In this document: piece after piece, positions 12,540-60,952 of the stretch | How the letters are laid out: every line of letters starts with the position of its first letter | Position numbering within the stretch: position 1 is the first letter of the stretch | From: Patescibacteria group bacterium | Lineage (GTDB): Bacteria > Patescibacteriota > Patescibacteriia > SBBC01 > CAIJZX01 | NCBI GenBank assembly: GCA_038065275.1 | Contig: JBBTRH010000005.1 | Coordinates: 26,466 to 90,465 of the forward strand | Length of the DNA stretch: 64,000 bases | Direction: 5' to 3' | Translations under genes and position numbers: made by a program | Notes under the pieces: model-generated | Database searches by the model: none | Told to the model about the DNA's origin: nothing | What the model saw: only the letters and a program-made list of their open reading frames with translations

Positions 12540-14030
12540 ATGCGGTATTTTCTTTACGCTCGAAAATCAACCGAGGATGAAGAACATCAGATCATGTCCA
12601 TTGAGGCACAGCTCTTTGAGTTGTCCGAATATGCCAAGCGAGAAAAGATAACCATTGCCGAAAAGTTTATTGAAAGTAAAAGCGCGAAAAGTCCCGGTCG
12701 GGAAATTTTCGGCCAGATGATTGTCAAAATACAGGAAAGTAAAGAACCAATCGGCATTCTCGCTTGGCATCCTGATCGCTTGGCCCGAAATAGTATTGAT
12801 GGTGGTCAAATTATCTACCTCGTCGACGGCAAGAAAATCGCGGCCTTGCGTTTCCCGACATTCTGGTTTGAACCGACACCGCAAGGGCTATTCATGCTCC
12901 AAGTCGCGTTTGGCCAATCGAAATACTATTCGGACAACTTAAGCGAGAACGTGAAGCGCGGGATTCGTCAAAAACTCAGACGTGGTGAGTCCCCAAATTA
13001 TGCGGCAATCGGGTACGTCAATAATTTTAAAACCCGGACAATTGAACCCGATCCGTTCAAAGGGCGTGTCATCGCTAAAGCATTTGAAGAATATGCGAAA
13101 GGAATGCACACCCTCGAAAGTCTAGGCAAGCGTCTGAGTTTTTGGGGTATAGTCAGTCGGACCGGAAAGCCGCTCCCAAAAGCAACGTTGAGCCGAATGT
13201 TGACCAATCCGGTTCATTGCGGATTGATTCGGCATAATGGCGAAACATATCCGGGCGGTTTTGCCGCTAACGTCTCGATGGAGTTATTCGAAAAAGTCCA
13301 GAAAGTCTATAAGCAAAATCAAAAAGGTCATCATTTTCGTAAGCGTCATCATTTTGCTTTAACTGGACTATTGAAGTGCGGAGAATGTGGCGCGGCAATA
13401 ACCGCCCAAAATACCAAAGGTCATGGCGGTTGGTATGTGTATTATCGCTGTACCAAACGTCTTGGTCCTTGTAAGCAAGGATACATTCAACAAGAGCGGC
13501 TTTCCGATCTGATCCGCGCAAAGGTTCGAGAAGTTGCAATAAGCGAAGACTGGGCGAAGAAAATGTTGGATAAGGTAACGATGTGGGAAAATGAGATCGC
13601 CCAGTCTTCGCAGTCTTCCGCCCAAAATCTCAAAACAAGGATGAAGGAAACAGAATTACAGCTTGACCGCATAGTGAATGCTTTCCTTGATGGCTCTATT
13701 GAAAAGGCTGTTTATTTGGAAAAGAAAGATGCATTGATTAAAACTCAAACTGGCCTTGAACAGAAAAAGGCGGATTTTGGGCGGAAGACCCTTTATTGGA
13801 TCGAACCTTTGCGCCAGTGGATATTAGACGCTCAAAAGGCCGAAAAACTTGCTTCGTCGAACGATTTACCTGAATTGAAATCGTTCGCGGAAAAAATTGG
13901 AACGAACCGCCGCCTGGTGGATAAAAGCGTGCGGTGGATATTGGCTAAACCCTGGAATTTGACCGTAAACTTTCGCGGAAGTTTCATTTGGTGGGCCCCC
14001 CGGGACTCGAACCCGGAACTCTCAGCTTAA
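12540..14030 (+). CDS. large serine recombinase (resolvase/invertase N-domain + recombinase domain + zinc-ribbon)
   Basis: YARKSTEDE...SIEAQ catalytic Ser motif near N-terminus; 496 aa; Cys cluster CGECG...C..C; 3' end runs through IR-B and into the tRNA-Lys gene on the opposite strand. Confidence 0.8.
   Translation: MRYFLYARKSTEDEEHQIMSIEAQLFELSEYAKREKITIAEKFIESKSAKSPGREIFGQMIVKIQESKEPIGILAWHPDRLARNSIDGGQIIYLVDGKKIAALRFPTFWFEPTPQGLFMLQVAFGQSKYYSDNLSENVKRGIRQKLRRGESPNYAAIGYVNNFKTRTIEPDPFKGRVIAKAFEEYAKGMHTLESLGKRLSFWGIVSRTGKPLPKATLSRMLTNPVHCGLIRHNGETYPGGFAANVSMELFEKVQKVYKQNQKGHHFRKRHHFALTGLLKCGECGAAITAQNTKGHGGWYVYYRCTKRLGPCKQGYIQQERLSDLIRAKVREVAISEDWAKKMLDKVTMWENEIAQSSQSSAQNLKTRMKETELQLDRIVNAFLDGSIEKAVYLEKKDALIKTQTGLEQKKADFGRKTLYWIEPLRQWILDAQKAEKLASSNDLPELKSFAEKIGTNRRLVDKSVRWILAKPWNLTVNFRGSFIWWAPRDSNPELSA
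13901..13994. repeat. IR-B right copy (includes CCA end and 3' flank of tRNA-Lys)
   Basis: 93/94 identity to reverse complement of 11487-11580. Confidence 0.85.
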
Positions 14031-14063
14031 AAGGCTGATACTCTACCATTGAGTTAGGGACCC
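13992..14063 (-). tRNA. tRNA-Lys (anticodon UUU), CCA encoded at 13989-13991
   Basis: cloverleaf on minus strand: acceptor GGGUCCC/GGGGCCC, D-arm, anticodon loop CUUUUAA, T-arm CCGGGUUCGAGUCCCGG. Confidence 0.8.
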
Positions 14064-51107: not shown

Positions 51108-52310
51108 TTATAATTGCGTGCCGCCTACAATCGACGGACGACGCTTTTCAATGGCCGAGAGTTTCTTCTGTTTGAAATTTTGCCACCGCCCTTCAGCTAT
51201 CGCCGCGCGAATATCCCCCATCAACCGCATCATCATCCGCGTGTTATGGATGGCTAAGGCGCGACTGCCGCGATAGTCGTGCGCGCGGCACCACTGTTTA
51301 ATGTCCGCCGTGGACAGCCGCGTACAACTTGAACAGTCGCAATCGTTCACCAACGGACCGTCGCCTTGCTGACGGGCCAGCGGGACGATGTCAACGTAGT
51401 GGGTATCGGTCAGAACGTGCTGGTGACGCGCCCGGCGGACCGGTTCAACGCAGTCGAACAGGTCAACACCGCGATTGACCGCTAGGAGAATATCTTGAAT
51501 CCAGCCGATGCCGAGCAGGTGCCGCGGTTTTTCTTCCGGCAGGAACGGGACGACCCAGTCGAGCGTCTCCACCATTCGCTCTTGGCCGAAGGAGCCGCCG
51601 ATCCCGATACCGTCAAACGGCATCGCTCCAATGGCCCGCGCGCTCTCAGTTCGCAATGCCTCGAACGTTCCGCCCTGGACGATGCCGAACATCAACTGGT
51701 CAGTTCGCGTCCGCGCTTCGAGACAGCGCCGCGCCCAAGCGTGTGTCCGTTCCATCGCCTGTCGGTTATAAGTTTCGTCGTGAAGCGGCGAGGTGCATTC
51801 ATCAAAGGCAAAAATGATGTCCGCCCCGATCTCTTCCTGCCATTGCGTGGCAATTTCCGGAGTTAAACGCACTAATTCCCGTCCGTCGGAAAAAATCACC
51901 CCGTCTTCATCGATCGTCGCATGGGCAGTGGTCAACGCCTTGGTCTGGTGTGGTCGGGCATTGATCCCGCCGGCGACTTTTCCGATGCCATGGACCATTC
52001 CCCACCCCAAACTGAAGACCTGGAATCCGCCGGAATCGGTAGCCAGCGGATGGTGCCAGCCGATAAATTGATGGAGTCCGCCGGCCGCGGCGATCGCTTC
52101 GATGCCGTGCTGGCGGTTCAAGTGGTGCGTGTTACACATCAGCACCTCAGCCCCGCACTCCCGCACGTCATCCAGTGACAGCCCGTGGAATATCCCCCGC
52201 GTCGCCACCGGCATAAAGTTCGGCGTCGCGATATCGCCGTGCGCGGTGGTTAAAATACCGGTGCGGGCCCGTGAGTGCCGGGCGGAATGTTCAATGCGCC
52301 AGCCGGTCAT
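51108..52310 (-). CDS. tgt: queuine tRNA-ribosyltransferase
   Basis: TIM-barrel TGT motifs, C-terminal CxCxxC...H zinc site (CDCSSC). Confidence 0.85.
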   Translation of the reverse strand: MTGWRIEHSARHSRARTGILTTAHGDIATPNFMPVATRGIFHGLSLDDVRECGAEVLMCNTHHLNRQHGIEAIAAAGGLHQFIGWHHPLATDSGGFQVFSLGWGMVHGIGKVAGGINARPHQTKALTTAHATIDEDGVIFSDGRELVRLTPEIATQWQEEIGADIIFAFDECTSPLHDETYNRQAMERTHAWARRCLEARTRTDQLMFGIVQGGTFEALRTESARAIGAMPFDGIGIGGSFGQERMVETLDWVVPFLPEEKPRHLLGIGWIQDILLAVNRGVDLFDCVEPVRRARHQHVLTDTHYVDIVPLARQQGDGPLVNDCDCSSCTRLSTADIKQWCRAHDYRGSRALAIHNTRMMMRLMGDIRAAIAEGRWQNFKQKKLSAIEKRRPSIVGGTQL

Positions 52311-52352: not shown

Positions 52353-53669
52353 TCAGAATTTCGTCGCGTAATGATCCGCTTCGTGGGCCGGTCGTTCCTG
52401 ACGCCGCACCGGATGCGACGGGCGGTGGCCATGGTGCGGTGGTCGATGTCGCGGCGGTCGGTGGGACGGCGGGGAAACCAGCGGCTGGCGGCGGTGGATT
52501 GGATGAGGATAAAAGGTGGTTGGAGCTGGCAGTCGCCGGGCTGGCGCCAGAGTCGGCAGGGCGGAGATCGGCAACGCGACCCGGATCAGGCGTTCAATGT
52601 CCCGGACATCGCCGCGCTGGTCAAAGGTGGCGAAGGAAACTGCCCGGCCGGTGCGGCCGGCCCGCGCGGTCCGACCGATGCGATGGACATAGTCTTCCGG
52701 GTTGCTCGGCAAATCGTAGTTGACCACGAGTTCAATGCCAGAAACGTCAAGGCCGCGGGCGGCGATGTCGGTCGCGACCAGCACCCGGTATTTCCCCGAC
52801 TTGAATCCCTCCAGCGCCTCGCGCCGCTGGGCTAAACTGCGATTGGAGTGAATGTCGGCGGCGGTACAGCCCATGGTTTTGACCTGCCGTGCCAGCTTTT
52901 TGGCCCCGTACTTCGTTCGCGTGAAGACCAGGGCCGGGCCCGGGATTTGGTTGAGCAGTGTTTCGAGCAGTTGCGGCTTCGCTTCCTTGCCGATAAAAAA
53001 CAGCTCCTGGGTCACTTTGTCAACGGTCGTTCCCGAACGGGTGATTTCCACGCGAATCGGCAGATGCATGTGCCGCTGGGCGATGGCCACGATGGCGTTG
53101 GGCATGGTGGCCGAGAAGAGCATGGTCTGACGTTGACGCGGCACCACCTCCAGAATACGGTTAATCTGCGGCGCGAAGCCCATGTCCAACATCCGGTCGG
53201 CTTCATCAAGGACCAGGATGCGCACGTCTGACAAGTCAACGGTGCGCTGTTCGAGGTGGTCGATCAAGCGGCCCGGCGTCGCGATGATGATATGCGGTTT
53301 CCGCCGGAGCGCCTGGTGCTGGAGATACATCGAGGCGCCGCCGATCAGGACGGCCGTCCGCAGGCCGACGCTCCGACCGATAGCATGGAGCGACTCATCG
53401 ACCTGGATGGCCAATTCGCGGGTCGGCAACACGACTAAGCCGCGCCCCTTGATCTGGGCTAACCGCTGGATCATCGGGATGCCGAAAGCGAGCGTCTTGC
53501 CGGTGCCGGTTTGGGCCACGCCGATCAGGTCCTTGCCTTCGATCGCGACCGGAATCGAGCGGCGCTGGATGGGAGTCGGTTCGGTGAACTTCAGGCGCTC
53601 AACCGCGTCGAGGAGACTGGGAGCGATACCCAGACCGGAAAAATTAATAGATTCGGAGCTGGATGACAT
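52353..53669 (-). CDS. DEAD-box ATP-dependent RNA helicase with P/H/R-rich C-terminal tail
   Basis: Q-motif, AQTGTGKT, DEAD, SAT, HRIGRTARAG; start trimmed to MSSSSE. Confidence 0.85.
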   Translation of the reverse strand: MSSSSESINFSGLGIAPSLLDAVERLKFTEPTPIQRRSIPVAIEGKDLIGVAQTGTGKTLAFGIPMIQRLAQIKGRGLVVLPTRELAIQVDESLHAIGRSVGLRTAVLIGGASMYLQHQALRRKPHIIIATPGRLIDHLEQRTVDLSDVRILVLDEADRMLDMGFAPQINRILEVVPRQRQTMLFSATMPNAIVAIAQRHMHLPIRVEITRSGTTVDKVTQELFFIGKEAKPQLLETLLNQIPGPALVFTRTKYGAKKLARQVKTMGCTAADIHSNRSLAQRREALEGFKSGKYRVLVATDIAARGLDVSGIELVVNYDLPSNPEDYVHRIGRTARAGRTGRAVSFATFDQRGDVRDIERLIRVALPISALPTLAPARRLPAPTTFYPHPIHRRQPLVSPPSHRPPRHRPPHHGHRPSHPVRRQERPAHEADHYATKF

Positions 53670-54099
53670 GGGTGAAGTGTACCACGGCCACGGCGAAAGA
53701 GATACGCCTCGGGCTGGACAGTCCGACGCCTGGTGCGGTAGTGTGACAGTCGGAAACTTGAACCGGAGGGAAGATGACACAACGTCGTTCTGTTCGGAAG
53801 AAGCGTCGAGCCTCAACCAGGCCGGCGCCCCCCGTCCCCGACTTGCCGCCGGCCAGCGGCGTGGCTGATTCCGCCCAGGGACCGGAACGTCTGATGCCTA
53901 AACTGCCGGCGCCACCCAAGCGCCCCAAGCGCAAAACCCGAGGCCGTCCATGACCTCGGGTGTTTTTTTAGTTTGCGTAATTATCGGAGAATTATAGTTA
54001 ATAGCTAAATCTAGTTGCTGATTCTACTATACTGAGGCTCGATTATTGACTAATCTCATAAAAAACTCATGCGCATTAATAAATAATTACATTTCTAAA

Positions 54100-54612
54100 T
54101 TACGCTCCTGTTACGCGATAATGTATGCGCGCTACCGTTTCGCCCAGCGTTTTATTTTCTATTAGTCTCAGTTTCGGCATCGGCACGGCTACATCAAACA
54201 GCCGCTTCCCGCTCCCGAAGAACACCGCTTCGACATCGAGAATGATCTCATCGATCAGTCCGGCTTGCAGGAACACTGTATTGGCCGCCGTTCCTCCACC
54301 GAGCACCGCGGCGGTGAACCCTTGGCCCTTCAGCACCGCCATCGCCTCATCCGGCGTCTTGGCGAACATGGTTTTCCCATCCGGCGAACCGCTCCGCGAT
54401 TCGGACAGAACCACGGTAAACGGGCGACTGATCCGTTCAAACTCCCCGGCCGCCTTCATCATCTCGTACGTCCGCCGACCGACAATGAGATTTCCTTTAG
54501 ACTTCACGAACTCAGCGTAGGCCGTCCACTCCGTTTCCGACCACGGCGTTGAATCATCGTCGCGGGCGATGAAGCCGTCAATGCTGATCGCCATGTAGAG
54601 GGTGAGTTTCAT
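54100..54612 (-). CDS. dihydrofolate-reductase-like (RibD C-terminal domain) family protein
   Basis: 170 aa; GRRTYE, GGGTAAN blocks. Confidence 0.6.
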   Translation of the reverse strand: MKLTLYMAISIDGFIARDDDSTPWSETEWTAYAEFVKSKGNLIVGRRTYEMMKAAGEFERISRPFTVVLSESRSGSPDGKTMFAKTPDEAMAVLKGQGFTAAVLGGGTAANTVFLQAGLIDEIILDVEAVFFGSGKRLFDVAVPMPKLRLIENKTLGETVARIHYRVTGA

Positions 54613-54817
54613 GATCGCGAGGTAAGTTGTCGGTAGCGGCGTATCTTATGGGTTGGGGCGAACCGGCGTATGACAGTATTGTCCCATAGTCAGCAACAAC
54701 TTGACAACCGGCCGCCGCTATGCCACTATTCGCGGCTGTCAGTTCTGCCTGTAACTTTTGTTGATAATTCGCGTCCGTTGACAACTCGATAGCAACACAA
54801 CCGGAGGGGAGAGGTTT

Positions 54818-55558
54818 ATGGGCAAGCCATTTAAGGGCACGACCGAAGAAGGCTTGGCGCATTACCTGGCGAGCCTGCCGCGCGCGACGACTCGAGCCGG
54901 ACATCAGGCTCGGCAACCGATCATCGCCTATTGCCGTTGCACCACGTCGACCGTCCGGCGCTGGACGAAGGGCGAAATCAAGCCGCTGGGGCTGATGCTG
55001 GTCCGGGTACGGTATTTCCTGGCCAGCCAAGGCTACTGTGTCGTCGAGCTCGAAAGACTCGATCCTGCGGTCAGGAGACTCGGCCAATTGATCGCTGAAG
55101 AGGCGCTGACGGCGGATGAAGCACGGGTGGCACTGAAATATGAAGCCAACAACGTCATCCTGGAACTGCTTCACGGGCGGCGGCAACTGAACGACGTCCG
55201 CCAAGCAATACTCGTGTCACTGCTGGCTAGGCATCAATCGCATTCGGCTCCGCCGCCCGATGCAACTTCAGCGGCGACGGAATCATCGCCTCCGACCGTG
55301 CCGCCGACGACGGATGATTGCAAGACCTCCGTCATGGCGATGCTGGCCGGTTTTGTCCAGGGGGCGATACCGCTGGCCGAATTTGCGGCTTCCGATCGCT
55401 TTACTGACGCCGATCGAGAACGGCTCCGCCAGCTCTGCGGCGGCGGCGGAATGTTTCATCTGTCCAATCTGACCGCCGCGCTTTGCAGTGCGGACGCTCG
55501 TCAGGATCAGTTGGCAACCAGCCCGAACAATCGGGCGATACGAAGGAGAAATCAATGA
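54818..55558 (+). CDS. HTH-domain protein, first gene of GHKL cassette
   Basis: IIAYCRCTTSTVRRWTKGEI helix-turn-helix; stop overlaps next gene start (ATGA). Confidence 0.5.
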   Translation: MGKPFKGTTEEGLAHYLASLPRATTRAGHQARQPIIAYCRCTTSTVRRWTKGEIKPLGLMLVRVRYFLASQGYCVVELERLDPAVRRLGQLIAEEALTADEARVALKYEANNVILELLHGRRQLNDVRQAILVSLLARHQSHSAPPPDATSAATESSPPTVPPTTDDCKTSVMAMLAGFVQGAIPLAEFAASDRFTDADRERLRQLCGGGGMFHLSNLTAALCSADARQDQLATSPNNRAIRRRNQ

Positions 55559-57270
55559 AGAAGTCAGCCGATCGCAGCTTCGTCAGCGAAATCGCCGTTC
55601 ATCTCGGCGAAGCACTGCGGAGCGCCGCCATTCACTACGAAACGATCGCCGAGGTCGCGTATGAGGAGGTTCAGAATGCTCTGGACGCCGGCGCGCGAAC
55701 CATTCGGGTCGAGATCGACCTGCGCCGGATGTTCATGCGGGTCGCCGACAACGGTCGAGGGATGAGCCGCGAGCAGATGGAAGCGGCGCTACGCACCATC
55801 TACCGGTCCTTGAAATCCGGCGCGGCGCTGGGCGAAAAGGGCATCGGCATGATGGCGCCGATGGGGAAGAGCGATTATTTCACCATCACCACGACGCCGG
55901 AAGGTGGCGACGAATACCGCGTCTGGAGATTCGTGCCGGAAGAAATTTTCCGGGAGCGAGACAGTGCCAAGGTGCCGGCCGAGGTTTTGCCGGATCTTCG
56001 GTACAATCCGAAGACGTCCGACAACCATCCGACCGACCGCCGCTGGCGAACGGAAGTGATGATCGTCGGGCTGACTTCCGACCGTTCGCTCAGCCGCATG
56101 ACCATCGGCCAGGTGGCCGAGGTGATCAAGGGCCGCTACGGTGCCGCCATGCGTCGCCACCGCACGACTATCACCCTAAGAATCACCGATAAGCGCGGGC
56201 GATCGGAAACGACGACGTTCAACGCTCCGGATTTCGTCGGCCAGCCGCTTGGCAAGTGGCAAGGTTCCGACCTGCGCACCGAGACAGTCGAGTTCCGAAT
56301 GTTCTGGGTCGGGCGATCGCCGAAGGGCAAGCACGGCGAGCATCACGTCTACTTCCGCGAACAGGATCGCGATTACCGCTTGAAGTTCGAGGATTTCCTG
56401 CGGAATCTTAAGTCCTACCTGCGCGAGGACGTTGCCGCCTGTCTCGGCTCAGGCGAGTTCGAGGGTGAGATTTTCTATCCATCTTCGCTCGTTCTGCGCG
56501 ATGACCGGCTTGGCTTCCTGAAGAGCGACGCCCTGGACGGACTGTGCAAGATCATCGAGCGGTGGTACGACGAGATCGGCCAGCAGTATCTCGAGGAAGC
56601 CCGCACCAGTTCGTCTTTGCGCGAAGATCAGCGTCTATGCCGCGCCGCGCTGAGCCACCTGCGGCAGATGTTCGAACGGCCAGAATTCGCCGACTGCCGC
56701 GAGCTGGTGTCGTCGTTCGCCACCGGCTCAATCGGGGGCGGCCATTCACCGGTGGCGAAGGGGCGCGTCATCGGCCCCGACATCATGCCGTCGCTGACTG
56801 ATCATCCGGGACGTGGTCAGAAAACCGCTGACTCGGGCAATGGTCGAGCCGCGGCAGCGCGTTTCGAGCATCCCGGCCTGATTCACCTGGCTGCTTTGGG
56901 TCCGGAGGGGCAGAAGCGCCGGATCGTCAAGCATGGCAGTTTTTCGCTCCGGATATGTCCCGACCAGATGCAGTGGTCGGAGCGACGGGACCGGATGTGG
57001 GAGCTGGTGCCGGAACAGGGCATCATGTTCATCAATAACCGCCATCCGCGGTGGGCAGATTGCAAGGCGGCGCGTAACAGCGAGGCTGTCGTGAACCGGC
57101 TGGTGTCATTCATAGCTGTCAACGCCCTCCGGCTCCACGCCGTCAGGGACAGCGCCCACTATCCGGCCTTGATAGAGTTCTTCGACCGCTCGCTGGAACC
57201 GTACTGCATTTGCCTCCTCAGCGGCAACACGCCGGTCCCGAAAGCAACCAGAACGAAGAAGGCAAGGTAG
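55555..57270 (+). CDS. GHKL-superfamily (histidine-kinase/MutL/MORC-like) ATPase, 571 aa
   Basis: N-box EVQNALDAGA and G1-box VADNGRGMS of the Bergerat fold; RBS AGGAGA 6 nt upstream of ATG 55555. Confidence 0.6.
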   Translation: MKKSADRSFVSEIAVHLGEALRSAAIHYETIAEVAYEEVQNALDAGARTIRVEIDLRRMFMRVADNGRGMSREQMEAALRTIYRSLKSGAALGEKGIGMMAPMGKSDYFTITTTPEGGDEYRVWRFVPEEIFRERDSAKVPAEVLPDLRYNPKTSDNHPTDRRWRTEVMIVGLTSDRSLSRMTIGQVAEVIKGRYGAAMRRHRTTITLRITDKRGRSETTTFNAPDFVGQPLGKWQGSDLRTETVEFRMFWVGRSPKGKHGEHHVYFREQDRDYRLKFEDFLRNLKSYLREDVAACLGSGEFEGEIFYPSSLVLRDDRLGFLKSDALDGLCKIIERWYDEIGQQYLEEARTSSSLREDQRLCRAALSHLRQMFERPEFADCRELVSSFATGSIGGGHSPVAKGRVIGPDIMPSLTDHPGRGQKTADSGNGRAAAARFEHPGLIHLAALGPEGQKRRIVKHGSFSLRICPDQMQWSERRDRMWELVPEQGIMFINNRHPRWADCKAARNSEAVVNRLVSFIAVNALRLHAVRDSAHYPALIEFFDRSLEPYCICLLSGNTPVPKATRTKKAR

Positions 57271-57424
57271 TTGATGTTCCTTACCCCGATAGGCGACTAT
57301 CGGGGTTTTTCTTTGCAACTTGACAAAAATCACGGTTTCCCGCTAAGGTAGGCGCGGCTCACGTCGCACCTCCTAACCGATTTGCAGGCTGGAGCCGAGC
57401 CTCAAATCCCCAGCTGGAGGGTAT

Positions 57425-57871
57425 ATGGCCAAGCGTCACGGCGGACGGCCGCTTATTCCGACCGCCCTCAAGAAGTTCATCCGCGCCAAGCTGTTGGGTG
57501 CGGACAAGAAGGCCCCCCTGGCCAGGCAAATCAGCGCTTGGCACGCCGAGTTGCGGCGGGATCATCCCGACTTGCTCGGCAAGCGGAAGCCTGGGACCTT
57601 CTCGACTCTGGTCTACAAGATCCGTCAGCAGGACGCCAAATCGAGCGGCGCGAAGAAGTCGCGAGCTCGTAGCCGGCCGCGCTCCCGGCGGAACGCCCAG
57701 GCGGCCAAACCGGCCCGCGAACTCAGCCAGGAACTCGCCCGGAAGCTGGGGTTCCTGCAACAGGTTCGGATCGCCGTCTCCGAGGCGGAGGAGATCGTCA
57801 AGGAGCTCCGCCGCGTCAACCTCGAAGTGGTCTATCGGCACGACGAGGTCCTGCTCAAGCCGCTGAAGTAG
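57425..57871 (+). CDS. basic hypothetical protein (148 aa), third gene of cassette
   Basis: Lys/Arg-rich, followed by terminator. Confidence 0.45.
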   Translation: MAKRHGGRPLIPTALKKFIRAKLLGADKKAPLARQISAWHAELRRDHPDLLGKRKPGTFSTLVYKIRQQDAKSSGAKKSRARSRPRSRRNAQAAKPARELSQELARKLGFLQQVRIAVSEAEEIVKELRRVNLEVVYRHDEVLLKPLK

Positions 57872-57892
57872 GCACCGTACCATACGTTCAAC

Positions 57893-57928
57893 ATCCGGAT
57901 CTTCCAGCCGGGTGTTTTTTTATCAACC
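57893..57928 (+). terminator. intrinsic terminator (7-bp stem incl. G-U, 9-nt loop, then T7)
   Basis: CATCCGG-atcttccag-CCGGGTG TTTTTTT. Confidence 0.6.
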
Positions 57929-57952: not shown

Positions 57953-58450
57953 CTAGTAGACTAGCCGTTTCACCCACGCCGGTACCTTGGCTCGACGGAC
58001 GGTGTCATACTGGGGCGAGTACGGCTTGAGATCAAGGATCGGCGTGCCGTTGAGGATATCAAGTCCCTCCACCCGAACGACATTCCCGCGCCGGGCGAGA
58101 AGCCGAACGGTTGAGACGGCAATCGGGTTAGGACGTTGCGGGCAGCGACAGGCGAACACCCCGACGAACGGCACATCCGCGCGGTTCTGCGGATGATGCC
58201 GAAGATGACATTCTTTCTCCTGATTCATCCAGTAGACGACCATAACGTGCGAGTAACGCTCAAGACCCTGCAGTCCCTTCGCCAACCGCCGATTGATAAC
58301 CAAATCTGTTTTGCGGGAGCGCCAGCCGGTCAGCGTCGGTTTCTTGACGTTATTCACGGCCGTACCGATCGATTTCAGCGTAAAGCGTCCAGCGGCAGTG
58401 CGGCGACCGAAAAAAGAGCAGTATTCTGTGCGCAAGGTTTTTTTCTTCAT
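57953..58450 (-). CDS. tsaA: TsaA/YaeB-family tRNA methyltransferase-like protein
   Basis: GLDILNGTPILDLKPY C-terminal signature. Confidence 0.7.
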   Translation of the reverse strand: MKKKTLRTEYCSFFGRRTAAGRFTLKSIGTAVNNVKKPTLTGWRSRKTDLVINRRLAKGLQGLERYSHVMVVYWMNQEKECHLRHHPQNRADVPFVGVFACRCPQRPNPIAVSTVRLLARRGNVVRVEGLDILNGTPILDLKPYSPQYDTVRRAKVPAWVKRLVY

Positions 58451-58597
58451 TGCTTTCAGGTGATGATGTCCATAGAGTTAACCAAAATGTTCAAACACGG
58501 TTTCCGGCCCGCCGGTCCGGATCTTGGACTTTAGGGATGACGGCCCGCCGAACGAAGAGTTGCCATATTCCTTATGATAGCATAGTATTGAAACCGG

Positions 58598-58915
58598 TTC
58601 GGGGTATGGCGCAGTTTCCCGCCATGCGGCGGGATAAAGTCCGCGCGCATGAATGACCTCGAGCAACCCTCGCGCGGCTCAGGCGTGCGGGGCAAGGGTG
58701 CAATTTCTTTCCAACCTTCAGCTCGTCGGGTCGGGGTATGGCGCTAAAAATGCGCGTCCCGCCCCACTGTCGGGGATTAGCGCAGTTCCCCGCCATGCGG
58801 CGGGATAAAGTCCGCGCGCATGAATGACCTCAAGCCGGTAATTATATACTGGTTCGGGATAAAATGATGTGGGCGGAGTCGGGGTGTGGCGTAGCTGGTA
58901 GCGCGCTTGCATGGG
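58598..58915 (+). repeat. array of tRNA-Pro 5'-end fragments with two 55-bp direct repeats (58610-58664, 58777-58831)
   Basis: GTCGGGGTATGGCGCAG-like tRNA 5' segments at 58598, 58728, 58768, 58877. Confidence 0.6.
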
Positions 58916-59042
58916 GGTCGAGACGGCCGAAGAGCGAATGAACTGCTTCATTCGCGTGCCGTCGAGACGGGCAGCGCCGTGTTCCAAAGGAACAGGCGAT
59001 GCCCCGGAGCATGAGGTCGTTTACATTTTGGCGGCGGCGAGT

Positions 59043-59115
59043 CGGGGTATGGCGCAGTTGGTAGCGCGCTTGCATGGGGTGCAAGAGGTCGTGGGTTCGA
59101 GTCCCGCTACCCCGA
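59043..59115 (+). tRNA. tRNA-Pro (anticodon GGG)
   Basis: 73-nt cloverleaf: acceptor CGGGGUA/UACCCCG, D-arm GCGC-AGUUGGUA-GCGC, anticodon loop AUGGGGU, T-arm GUGGG-UUCGAGU-CCCGC; no encoded CCA; acceptor helix extendable by 9 further flanking bp. Confidence 0.75.
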
Positions 59116-59460
59116 CTCGCCGCCGCATCACATCAATTCGAGTCTCGCTACCCCGACCAAATAAGAAAAGTTAAGTCGAGTACCCGCGAAGGCTCCCGAA
59201 AACTTGACTTTTCTTATTTGGTCGAGTATTCTCAAAAGAGTCCAAACGGGGAGACGCAACGAGTCAGAAACTCCGCCGCCCTCATCAAAACCGCCAACCC
59301 CGCACTATGAATCTTGCGGATTCAAGTACGGGACAAGAGAACCCCCGCACCGCTTCGGGTGCGGGGCAGGCCGGAGAAAAATACCTGCCCCGTCGTTTTA
59401 CGGGGTCGGCTCGAACCACATTTTAAAAACAAATTTATTCATTATGAGCAATCTAAAATT

Positions 59461-60534
59461 ATGAAAAAGGGATTTGCATACGTCCCAGTCCTTGTTGTTA
59501 TATTTTTGGTCATTGCAGCTGGGGTCGTAGGATACTTTGTCGTAACGGCTAACAAAAAATCCACAACCAATGCTAATTCTATAGTTAGGAATGTCGGTAA
59601 TAATGTAAACATAATTTCCAACTCTGGTACCTCCGCCACAAACACGACTCCATCAAGCAATTCGAACAGCAGAACAAAATCTCTACCGATGCCAGTACCT
59701 TTAGCAAAATGGGATACTTCATACAATTCAGGTCTTAAAAATCCCCCCTCAACCCCAGCCGAAGGCCAAGCTTTGTGTGATTCGATAAATGATAATAATA
59801 CCAACACATGGCTTGGACCATTAGTAAATAAGAGTAAGTGTTTTGAAATGATGGTTGGCGGTTTTCACGATCCTAAATTCTGCGAGAAACTTGAATTTTC
59901 AACTGCCCCCGATACTCAACGCAGTCAACCATTTGACATTGGTATGGGCTGCATTGAGGACTACATAAGTCTTTACAAGAATTATGACTGCGCCTACCAT
60001 CAGAAAGTTGAAATTCGTGACCGCTGTTACTATGTTCTAGGCGTGCCAAACATGGTTAGTGATCCGGTTCGAGATTGTTTAAAAATTACTGATACGTTTC
60101 TAAAGAGTAGTTGCGAATCAGTGAACAAAGATTTTGATGCCGCTACTCCGATGCGACAGAATATTCAGGACTCCGTGATGGTTAGCTGTTTGCTTGGGCT
60201 TGAACCAAGTGAAGCTAAATATTTTTCCTCAAGCGGTACCATCTATAATGATTTTGTGAAAGAAGCAAGCAATCAAGGAAATATCGATAACTGTTCACAA
60301 TCAAGTTTCTTTCCTGATTCTGAACGGCAACGCGTGAAAGTACTGGTGGAAACGGACAAAGACCAGGATGGGTTGAATCTCTTTTTAGAAAATGTTTTTG
60401 GCACGGATGATTCGAAAGCTGATTCAGACGGCGACAGTCATCCTGACCTTCAAGAGATTCAAAATGGCTACAATCCTCTTGGTCCTGGTAAGTTAGAGGA
60501 TGCTGAAATTCTAGAAGCCAATACAAATTCCTAA
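59461..60534 (+). CDS. secreted/membrane-anchored cysteine-rich protein with C-terminal Asp-rich calcium-binding-like repeats
   Basis: ORF 59314..60534 trimmed to MKKGFAYVPVLVVIFLVIAAG signal anchor; DSDGDSHPDLQE near C-terminus. Confidence 0.5.
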   Translation: MKKGFAYVPVLVVIFLVIAAGVVGYFVVTANKKSTTNANSIVRNVGNNVNIISNSGTSATNTTPSSNSNSRTKSLPMPVPLAKWDTSYNSGLKNPPSTPAEGQALCDSINDNNTNTWLGPLVNKSKCFEMMVGGFHDPKFCEKLEFSTAPDTQRSQPFDIGMGCIEDYISLYKNYDCAYHQKVEIRDRCYYVLGVPNMVSDPVRDCLKITDTFLKSSCESVNKDFDAATPMRQNIQDSVMVSCLLGLEPSEAKYFSSSGTIYNDFVKEASNQGNIDNCSQSSFFPDSERQRVKVLVETDKDQDGLNLFLENVFGTDDSKADSDGDSHPDLQEIQNGYNPLGPGKLEDAEILEANTNS

Positions 60535-60727: not shown

Positions 60728-60952
60728 CAAAAAGATTTGATGATTTTTGTCCCTGGCTCACCGCGTCCTTTACGAATGTAAGCAGGCTTGATTCCCGAGG
60801 CCGAACAAAGGCCTGAGGCCGCTGCTGAACGACTCCGGTACTTCGCGAAGGAGCACTTGAGCGTCCTGAAGCAGTGTATTAGCCGCTGGGTCCGCTAGAT
60901 CCTGACCCCACGGGGTCAAGAGATATCGACCTCCCAAGGACGATGTATAGAA

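Follow-up and report, generated by a model that had tools for sequence, protein, structure and literature searches.

A conserved two-gene module pairing a helix-turn-helix protein with a GHKL ATPase in Patescibacteria

Does a short run of plus-strand genes in a patescibacterial genome constitute an undescribed system, and if so, which genes belong to it and what might they do? The run lies in a 64,000-nucleotide (nt) stretch of contig JBBTRH010000005.1 from a Patescibacteria group bacterium (GenBank assembly GCA_038065275.1), hereafter the window. The genomes of Patescibacteria are tiny, and no function is known for most of the lineage-specific genes they contain. A first reading of the sequence (the original prediction) had proposed a single three-gene cassette encoding a helix-turn-helix (HTH) protein, a GHKL-type ATPase and a basic protein, possibly with a role in defence. 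The coordinates of the three plus-strand open reading frames (ORFs) amid minus-strand genes were confirmed, with a RibD_C gene and a TrmO gene on either side: gene 1 (54818–55558) encodes 246 amino acids (aa), gene 2 (55555–57270) encodes 571 aa counted from its ATG, and gene 3 (57425–57871) encodes 148 aa. Our analysis shows that genes 1 and 2 are a two-gene module whose members are transcribed together and often coupled in translation; it is largely vertically inherited and found almost only in Patescibacteria (the candidate phyla radiation, CPR). The conserved unit is two genes, not three. The pair can be placed within the MORC/paraMORC radiation of ATPases by its fold and plan, and a search of the literature on GHKL, MORC or HATPase_c_3 proteins with Patescibacteria, CPR or defence returned no description of it.

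The pairing of genes 1 and 2 recurs across distant genomes. To scan genomes we used patterns drawn from a 10-member subset of the gene 2 family, the 56-sequence alignment being too diverse. The scan returned 32 full-length gene 2 loci (L005–L036), nearly all in metagenome-assembled genomes (MAGs) of Patescibacteria, with hosts in the Paceibacterota, Minisyncoccia, Vogelbacteria, Sungiibacteriota, Taylorbacteria and Saccharibacteria; five locus records are labelled Gammaproteobacteria and one Acidobacteriaceae, labels that could not be verified. Together with L001, a distant relative of the window locus, these make 33 loci, and in 30 of them a gene-1 homologue lies directly upstream of gene 2 on the same strand. 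The exceptions are L028, which begins at a contig edge; L035, which carries a divergent gene-1-like ORF recognised by eye; and L032, where the gene 2 match is partial and no gene-1 homologue was detected. The same pair is present in L048 and L050–52. The distance from the gene 1 stop to the gene 2 start is between −11 and +68 nt in all 28 of the 28 loci compared, with an ATGA overlap in seven. In the window this overlap occupies 55555–55558, and a ribosome-binding site (RBS), AAGGAGA, sits at 55543–55549 (plus strand) within the end of gene 1, 6 nt upstream of the gene 2 start, just as had been predicted. The two proteins also diverge in step: their pairwise identity matrices are correlated (Mantel r=0.66), a value reached in 0 of 2000 permutations.

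Comparisons between related loci indicate how the module is inherited. The loci of close relatives are syntenic, and gene 2 changes slowly within them. It is 96% identical between L020 and L024 (neighbours 72–98%, gene 1 81%), 71% between L006 and L007 (neighbours 41–55%, gene 1 50%), 59% between L013 and L014 (neighbours 42%, gene 1 41%) and 46% between L020 and L022 (neighbours 59–60%, gene 1 36%). Between the window and L001, gene 1 is 37%, gene 2 41% and the nearby TGT gene 43% identical. Judged from these alignments, gene 2 is shown to be as conserved as its housekeeping neighbours or more so, and to be under strong constraint. The most uneven comparison is that of L030 and L031, at which gene 2 is 84%, GroEL 75%, PGI 48% and gene 1 51% identical. 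These two loci come from the Saccharibacteria MAGs UBA6572 and UBA2952, in which the GroEL gene is adjacent and the surroundings are syntenic; the gap between gene 2 and gene 1 reflects either uneven constraint in one operon or recombination limited to gene 2.

The surroundings of the pair are ordinary. A census of 131 proteins flanking it in 30 loci revealed no recurrent family and mostly housekeeping functions, including aminoacyl-tRNA synthetases, GroEL, P-type ATPases, PGI, MraW, a pseudouridine synthase and RmuC; one locus reads DnaB-RecR-x-gene 1-gene 2-L21-RmuC. No nuclease, methylase or helicase recurs among these proteins, which yield only scattered, generic PADLOC matches. Relatives of gene 2 were absent from 50,697 phage records, and 72,556 plasmids contained a 155-residue N-terminal match and none of full length. 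One 354-kb IMG/VR contig has the pair, and the genes around it there are not phage structural genes; we rejected an origin of the pair as a phage or plasmid gene on these results. The guanine-plus-cytosine (GC) content of the module (62%) shows no anomaly against that of the flanking genes (57–62%).

Gene 2 is a member of the GHKL (Bergerat-fold) ATPase superfamily. The protein matches Pfam HATPase_c_3 over residues 32–120 with 43.2 bits (cut-off 25), as do 56 of 56 family members, and it carries motifs I–III (E37..N41..D44, D65xGxG69 and G93xxG96xG98); the N-box and G1-box that had been read from the sequence are thus present. Across 147 members, E37, N41, D44, D65, G67, G69, K87, G93, G96 and G98 are conserved at ≥93%, Q40 is essentially invariant, and an arginine further along, R318, is conserved at 100%. 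The window protein retains all of these ATP-site residues and R318. Conservation extends to the C-terminus, where an SGxFEGEI strand, H397, R455, N494 and H497 stand out. A word-indexed protein search had returned the query itself and one relative at 41% identity (P0002), giving the appearance of an orphan. An exhaustive profile search of 1.84 billion representatives overturned this impression, with 327 gene 2 clusters at E<=1e-30, nearly all 550–590 aa long and matched end to end. The family therefore comprises at least 327 clusters at 50% identity, and defining this large group of MORC/MutL-like ATPases, with its fixed HTH partner and new C-terminal domain, is the main outcome of the work. 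A further set of ORFs from Nitrosopumilaceae and Nitrososphaera MAGs (L037–L042, ∼520–635 aa) matches the family over the N-terminal GHKL region only (phmmer E 1e-6 to 1e-8), and these thaumarchaeal proteins may be a sister family of GHKL proteins.

The predicted structure of gene 2 divides it into four parts. An AlphaFold2 model built on 56 relatives (predicted local distance difference test 90.5, predicted template-modelling score 0.81) has a GHKL ATPase plus S5-like transducer module at residues ∼1–320, a long helix of ∼60 residues at 325–386, a beta-rich domain at 390–495 and a bundle of three helices at 498–557. In fold comparisons the model scored 20.2 against the SMCHD1 ATPase module (314 residues aligned), 20.0 against both MORC3 and MORC2, 19.0 against the MutL N-terminal domain, 17.4 against TRAP1 and 16.2 against Topo VI-B, and below 7 against histidine kinases and SpoIIAB. 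These matches identify residues ∼1–320 as a GHKL domain and transducer of the MutL/MORC/Hsp90 kind and place the protein in the GHKL plus S5 transducer clade (MutL, MORC, type II topoisomerase B and Hsp90). The C-terminal ∼420 residues had been described as unrecognisable; this holds for ∼245 residues (∼325–571), while the part up to ∼320 belongs to the ATPase and transducer. Beyond the N-terminal GHKL domain, no Pfam family matched any of the 56 members, and a profile of residues 322–571 found nothing real in the PDB. The C-terminal region had been flagged as a place to look for a cryptic nuclease, and neither Pfam nor PDB profiles revealed a PD-(D/E)xK, HNH or PLD signature in gene 2. This agrees with the earlier remark that no nuclease or methylase is evident, as family searches of the genes and the neighbour census likewise yielded none.

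Gene 1 belongs to the XRE/Cro-C1 HTH family. Searches of Pfam, NCBIfam, PADLOC and PHROGs with the window protein gave nothing of significance. Four of 22 family members match HTH_3/HTH_31, the family profile matches XRE proteins in the PDB, and the lambda-repressor-like five-helix HTH is present, so that the phage-style HTH read from the sequence was borne out. The family alignment contains the XRE-type HTH (TV.RW..G...P.GE.L.RLR.FLE..GY), more helices, a variable low-complexity linker and a C-terminal conserved block (PLAE...SD.FT.EER..LR.L.G.DGVF.LSN.L..LCSE.AR). In the window protein the HTH domain covers residues ∼1–142, the disordered linker residues 143–164 and the conserved helical domain residues 165–246, with R200, R204 and R228 invariant. 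The AlphaFold2 model is confident for residues 1–142, disordered for 143–164 and of low confidence for the C-terminal helices. The C-terminal domain is conserved yet poorly modelled alone, a combination that would fit a domain folding on a partner. Gene 1 has about three times the length of restriction-modification (R-M) controller C-proteins, Aca, CapH and Cro/CI, and differs from XRE regulators in the extra helices after the HTH, the disordered linker and a conserved C-terminal domain of no known fold.

Upstream of gene 1 are sites at which such a protein might act. The box AACTTGACAA at 54698–54707 (plus strand), 120 nt upstream of gene 1, contains a −35-like TTGACA at 54701–54706 (∼117 nt upstream), and judging by sequence is likely the promoter of the gene 1–gene 2 operon. 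Boxes of the form TTGAYAA also occur upstream of gene 1 at 54761 and 54778, gene 1 of L001 is preceded by three TTGAC boxes at a spacing similar to that in the window, and TTGAC is enriched 5.4-fold upstream of gene-1 homologues.

How does the pair compare with known systems? MORC and SMCHD1 proteins and prokaryotic MORCs, like gene 2, have an N-terminal GHKL domain and S5-like transducer followed by coiled-coil or helical elements, and MORC and SMCHD1 are alike by analogy in working with sequence-specific DNA-binding partners. Identity to MORC/SMCHD1 is 12–15%, however, the C-terminal half is unrelated, and gene 2 lacks chromatin-reader domains such as CW or SMC-hinge. Among the Pfam and NCBIfam models, none specific to MORC matched the window protein or its 56 relatives, and MORC2 appears in the PDB profile search at E ∼5e-4 over the N-terminal 80 residues only. 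Prokaryotic MORCs occur with SF2 helicases and nucleases (PMC2292703), partners that are absent beside the pair. The paraMORC1–5 families of Iyer, Abhiman and Aravind (2008), which we compared with gene 2 by their published description only, share with it intact GHKL motifs, an S5 domain and a family-specific C-terminal extension (PMC2292703). They were defined by their linkage to R-M genes, and their extensions are RE-fold nuclease, TIR or HxH domains (PMC2292703). In the present family the constant partner is instead the XRE-HTH protein and the extension is without those signatures; R-M genes do not recur among the 131 flanking proteins of the 30 loci, so gene 2 lacks the R-M-linked neighbourhood of paraMORCs.

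Other GHKL proteins are likewise similar in part. The MutL N-terminal domain is the best sequence-level match (PDB profile E ∼1e-7), with the similarity falling on the N-box and G1 box, but NCBIfam TIGR00585 (MutL) reaches 33.7 bits (1.9e-8) against a cut-off of 180 over residues 30–79 only, and gene 2 has no DNA_mis_repair match and no MutL_C dimerisation/endonuclease domain. The HtpG model NF003555 reaches only 15.6 bits, its cut-off being 371. Fold values below 7 accompany the lack of a DHp/HisKA domain before a C-terminal HATPase_c, and we rejected a sensor histidine kinase on these grounds; with full-length models far below their cut-offs, gene 2 is neither the canonical histidine kinase nor the MutL paralogue that the original prediction had named as refutations, nor is it HtpG. 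Shedu type I-D (VcSduA), MzaB, TmtA (Tiamat) and the restriction enzymes BbrUII/HgiDII also begin with a GHKL ATPase, and in VcSduA this is followed by a middle domain resembling a clamp (PMC12137116). Their matches to gene 2 span ∼60–100 N-terminal residues (E 1e-9 to 0.03), their partners and size differ, and gene 2 has no DUF4263/PD-(D/E)xK or other effector domain; DUF4263 Pfam is unmatched in all 56 members. In PADLOC-DB v2, the window gene 2 matches TmtA at 2e-4 and MzaB at 4e-4 (best among relatives 1.3e-9), no full-length model matches gene 2, and genes 1 and 3 are without matches. We rejected gene 2 as a member of any PADLOC system on these partial N-terminal matches, in accord with the earlier statement that no named defence system fits. 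Tested by sequence or context, gene 2 thus falls outside MORC proper, MutL, Hsp90, histidine kinases, R-M-linked paraMORCs, Shedu and PADLOC systems, and the pair adds to the paraMORC-like ATPases a new family whose fixed partner and C-terminal domain are likewise new.

Tentatively, we propose that gene 2 is an ATP-gated clamp acting on DNA and that gene 1 serves as its HTH adaptor, recruiting or regulating it. Gene 1 would bind specific DNA via its HTH while its C-terminal domain docks onto the gene 2 ATPase. The latter may be held dimeric by its long helix and C-terminal domain, and ATP binding would shut its N-terminal gate, as in MutL, MORC and Hsp90, so that the clamp is recruited to, or released from, DNA sites. 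Such a clamp could help to manage the chromosome or foreign DNA, by compaction, silencing or signalling of a repair type, and would not be a nuclease-based restriction system; gene 1 probably controls its own operon as well. As for gene 3, it would be a separately transcribed, lineage-specific, DNA-binding-like protein with a putative link to the pair. If the HTH protein does target the clamp to DNA, the pair would offer a simple bacterial model of the recruitment of MORC-type ATPases and would add to what is known of how CPR bacteria handle their chromosome or foreign DNA.

Several points weigh against this proposal. The conserved H397, R455, N494 and H497 could form a catalytic site, including that of a nuclease, in the C-terminal domain, and Hsp90-type protein remodelling fits the gene 2 fold equally well. 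The window protein is off the family consensus at about ten conserved positions (R59M, F95K, C106S, S113T, G243E, G268R, R357E, H442L, P444H and G464S) that are 82–97% conserved in other members; together with its L001 counterpart it forms one divergent branch. The pair also appears to be sparsely distributed. Since 34% of known family members are recognised by the two search patterns, the 32 loci would suggest roughly a hundred of 185,579 species representatives, as is more usual for accessory systems than for core chromosome machinery.

A possible though unlikely alternative is that the pair is a two-gene conflict or defence module of abortive-infection or toxin-antitoxin-like type. Gene 1 would then be an HTH repressor, sensor or antitoxin, and gene 2 a paraMORC-type effector whose C-terminal domain is toxic or nucleolytic. 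Prokaryotic MORC and paraMORC ATPases are found mostly in R-M and conflict systems (PMC2292703), and a defence nuclease fused to a GHKL domain exists in Shedu (PMC12137116). Toxin-antitoxin and defence loci commonly have an HTH gene that overlaps a larger gene downstream of it, the distribution among species is sparse and patchy, and the conserved His, Asn and Arg of the C-terminal domain and the weak N-terminal PADLOC matches to TmtA, MzaB and REase_II point the same way. The PADLOC matches, however, are limited to generic GHKL motifs over ∼60–90 residues, and gene 2 carries none of the nuclease signatures sought. Among the 131 neighbours, defence partners such as a nuclease, methylase or helicase do not recur. 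The housekeeping contexts, their synteny among relatives, the slow evolution of gene 2 (conserved as much as GroEL and other neighbours, or more), its absence from phage records and, at full length, from plasmids, and the unremarkable GC content all point away from a typical mobile defence island. The defence framing of the original prediction drew solely on analogy with GHKL proteins; our analysis neither supports nor excludes a defence role for the pair. Were it a defence module, it would represent a new effector type without a recognisable nuclease.

We also considered a narrower form of the adaptor-and-clamp proposal, which strikes us as distinctly unlikely. Here the pair would be a Patescibacteria-specific counterpart of eukaryotic MORC/SMCHD1 silencing, in which the sequence-specific HTH adaptor loads the clamp onto selected DNA, whether regions of the cell's own chromosome or DNA coming in, the C-terminal domain provides dimerisation and entraps DNA, and the DNA is compacted or silenced uncut. 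Gene 0, a small gene found upstream of the pair in some loci (described below), might be an optional third subunit.

That gene 1 is only an autoregulator, similar to an R-M controller protein, and that gene 2 alone is an Hsp90/HtpG-like remodeller or a MutL-like matchmaker in these reduced CPR genomes is improbable. Hsp90 middle domains have an invariant arginine, comparable to R318 of gene 2. Like gene 2, Hsp90/HtpG proteins also have a three-part layout and a similar length, and full-length Hsp90s provide the longest of the best Foldseek matches (400–470 columns, E ∼4e-14). The strong purifying selection on gene 2, the housekeeping neighbours and the TTGAC boxes upstream of gene 1 would suit this arrangement as well. 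The likeness to Hsp90 is structural only, however, with a template-modelling score of ∼0.38 and no match to the HSP90 Pfam family (PF00183), and the HSP90 and MutL family models match only the ATP-binding motifs. Hsp90 proteins are not known to have a dedicated HTH partner; genes 1 and 2 co-vary and are translationally coupled, and gene 1 has a conserved C-terminal domain of ∼80 residues that would be superfluous for a simple repressor. Sparse distribution likewise disfavours a general chaperone or repair role.

The adaptor-and-clamp proposal concerns two genes, and the case for leaving gene 3 outside the module begins with transcription. An intrinsic terminator at 57283–57306 (plus strand), with a perfect 10-bp stem, a 4-nt loop and a TTTTT run (∼−18 kcal/mol), follows gene 2 and is the strongest of the region. 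Downstream of it, at 57320–57349 (plus strand), is a promoter-like TTGACA-N18-TAAGGT, which would serve gene 3. The supposed cassette thus comprises two transcription units and not one ending at a single terminator. A terminator after gene 3 does exist (57890–57925, plus strand), but it is moderate rather than strong (∼−12 kcal/mol by RNA folding), with a 9-bp stem that contains G-U pairs, a loop of 9 nt and a T-run, and it was missed by a consensus scan. L001 likewise has a terminator after gene 2 and TTGACA-N18-TAAGGT, with the same hexamers and spacing, ahead of its gene 3, so that gene 3 is a separate transcription unit in both.

Conservation of gene 3 is also limited. The Lys/Arg-rich character described for the 148-aa protein was confirmed, and its ORF has a GGAGG RBS. 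The four collections searched with gene 1 (Pfam, NCBIfam, PADLOC and PHROGs) gave no significant match to it either. A search of 5.8 billion proteins found one homologue, in L001, of which only the C-terminal 67 aa align (36% identity). The triad is accordingly confined to strain variants of the window and this one other genome, and the three-gene architecture put forward at the outset, together with the neighbourhood conservation expected of it, gives way to the pair alone in ∼30 loci. Elsewhere the pair is followed by S15, MraZ, enzymes or unrelated basic proteins, and phmmer, BLAST and hhalign detected no relation between the downstream proteins of different lineages; we rejected the view that gene 3 is a third, conserved component. 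It is a neighbour specific to its lineage, in a separate transcription unit and outside the conserved module. TGT too is kept beside the module in L001, where synteny alone could account for the position of gene 3. The 10-mer AACTTGACAA has only two exact copies in the window, at 54698–54707 upstream of gene 1 and at 57317–57326, 108 nt upstream of gene 3; when one mismatch is tolerated there are four matches against 2.8 expected by chance, a number not above chance.

A three-component system of genes 1, 2 and 3 in this lineage (HTH, GHKL and basic protein) is very improbable: it could account for the same order in distant L001 (37%, 41% and 36% identity), the kept terminator-plus-promoter junction, the two exact 10-mers and the basic or winged-helix-like proteins that follow gene 2 in other lineages, but a strong terminator separates gene 3 from the pair, ∼30 loci retain the pair without it, the one-mismatch 10-mers do not exceed chance, TGT is equally syntenic, the sole other homologue is that of L001, and the downstream proteins across lineages are unrelated (hhalign probability 0.8% for the window and L001 gene 3 against the L009/L011 protein).

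Two observations concern gene 3 and its counterparts. A 174-aa antisense ORF (57359–57883, minus strand) without a family match spans all of gene 3; the plus-strand frame is the one supported by the RBS and the L001 homologue. In several lineages the gene after the ATPase encodes a basic protein (pI ∼10–11). The examples in L009 (4437–5087) and L011 (9793–10296) have a winged-helix-like N-terminus and an Arg/Lys-rich linker, and those in L026 (2760–3452) and L027 (2736–3500) have a coiled coil. They are similar in type to gene 3, homology to which is not detectable, and their position reflects either chance or an analogous, fast-changing third component.

A small gene precedes the pair in part of the family. 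This gene 0 (∼90–120 aa; e.g., L006 6839–7144) lies directly upstream of gene 1, often overlapping it, in 12 loci (L005, L006, L008, L009, L010, L012, L013, L017, L019, L021, L023 and L036), and L023 carries a second copy on the opposite strand. Its product has the motif ITFSLxxWxGxxxPxKGQVVxLxxxxxFxKGWRAxxARP and no match in Pfam. Gene 0 is limited to one clade of the gene 2 tree, and the window and L001 fall in a clade without it. A 160-aa ORF upstream of the pair in L050 was examined as a candidate and found not to be gene 0. The unit to study is therefore two genes, or three where gene 0 is present, and not the triad.

Identical DNA is present in Hainich groundwater assemblies, and NCBI labels proteins identical to genes 1 and 3 as hypothetical proteins. 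To the left of the module lie the TGT gene (51108–52310), a DEAD-box helicase gene (52353–53816, minus strand) and the RibD_C gene (54100–54612, minus strand); to the right are the TrmO gene (57953–58450, minus strand) and tRNA-Pro (59043–59116). The AT-rich spacer at 53935–54100 that had been taken as the left border exists (34% GC), but it does not flank the genes in question, because the RibD_C gene lies between. It holds a plus-strand hairpin (CCCGAGG...CCTCGGG, then T7) at 53936–53968, with no plus-strand gene upstream, which could be a bidirectional terminator between the helicase and RibD_C genes.

Several further features lie outside the module, most of them beyond gene 3. A strain variant (L003, a contig of GCA_964359265.1) is 99.98% identical to the window up to 57942, just past the gene 3 terminator; identity resumes near 60744 at 92–97%, and a beta-helix gene takes the place of TrmO, tRNA-Pro and a 406-aa ORF of low GC content. 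The segment 57942–60744 beside the module (L003 4172–6164) is either hypervariable or a chimeric join. Within it, the 5′ end of the tRNA-Pro(GGG) gene recurs in at least three partial copies ahead of the gene itself: two form a 66-nt repeat at 58599–58664 and 58770–58835 (92% identical), and the third, 58876–58923, is 88% identical to the first 48 nt of the tRNA. Its 3′ end is duplicated downstream (59096–59116 and 59137–59157), and a 23-nt inverted repeat follows (59154–59176 and 59202–59224). From their arrangement, the repeats at 58590–59230 look like scars of repeated integration at tRNA-Pro. The 406-aa ORF (59314–60534), which has no Pfam match, lies in a low-GC island at 59.3–61 kb (42–47% GC against a window average of 55%). 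A second such island, at 6–14 kb (35–47% GC), is bounded by tRNA-Lys (13989–14063), and both are possible integrated elements.

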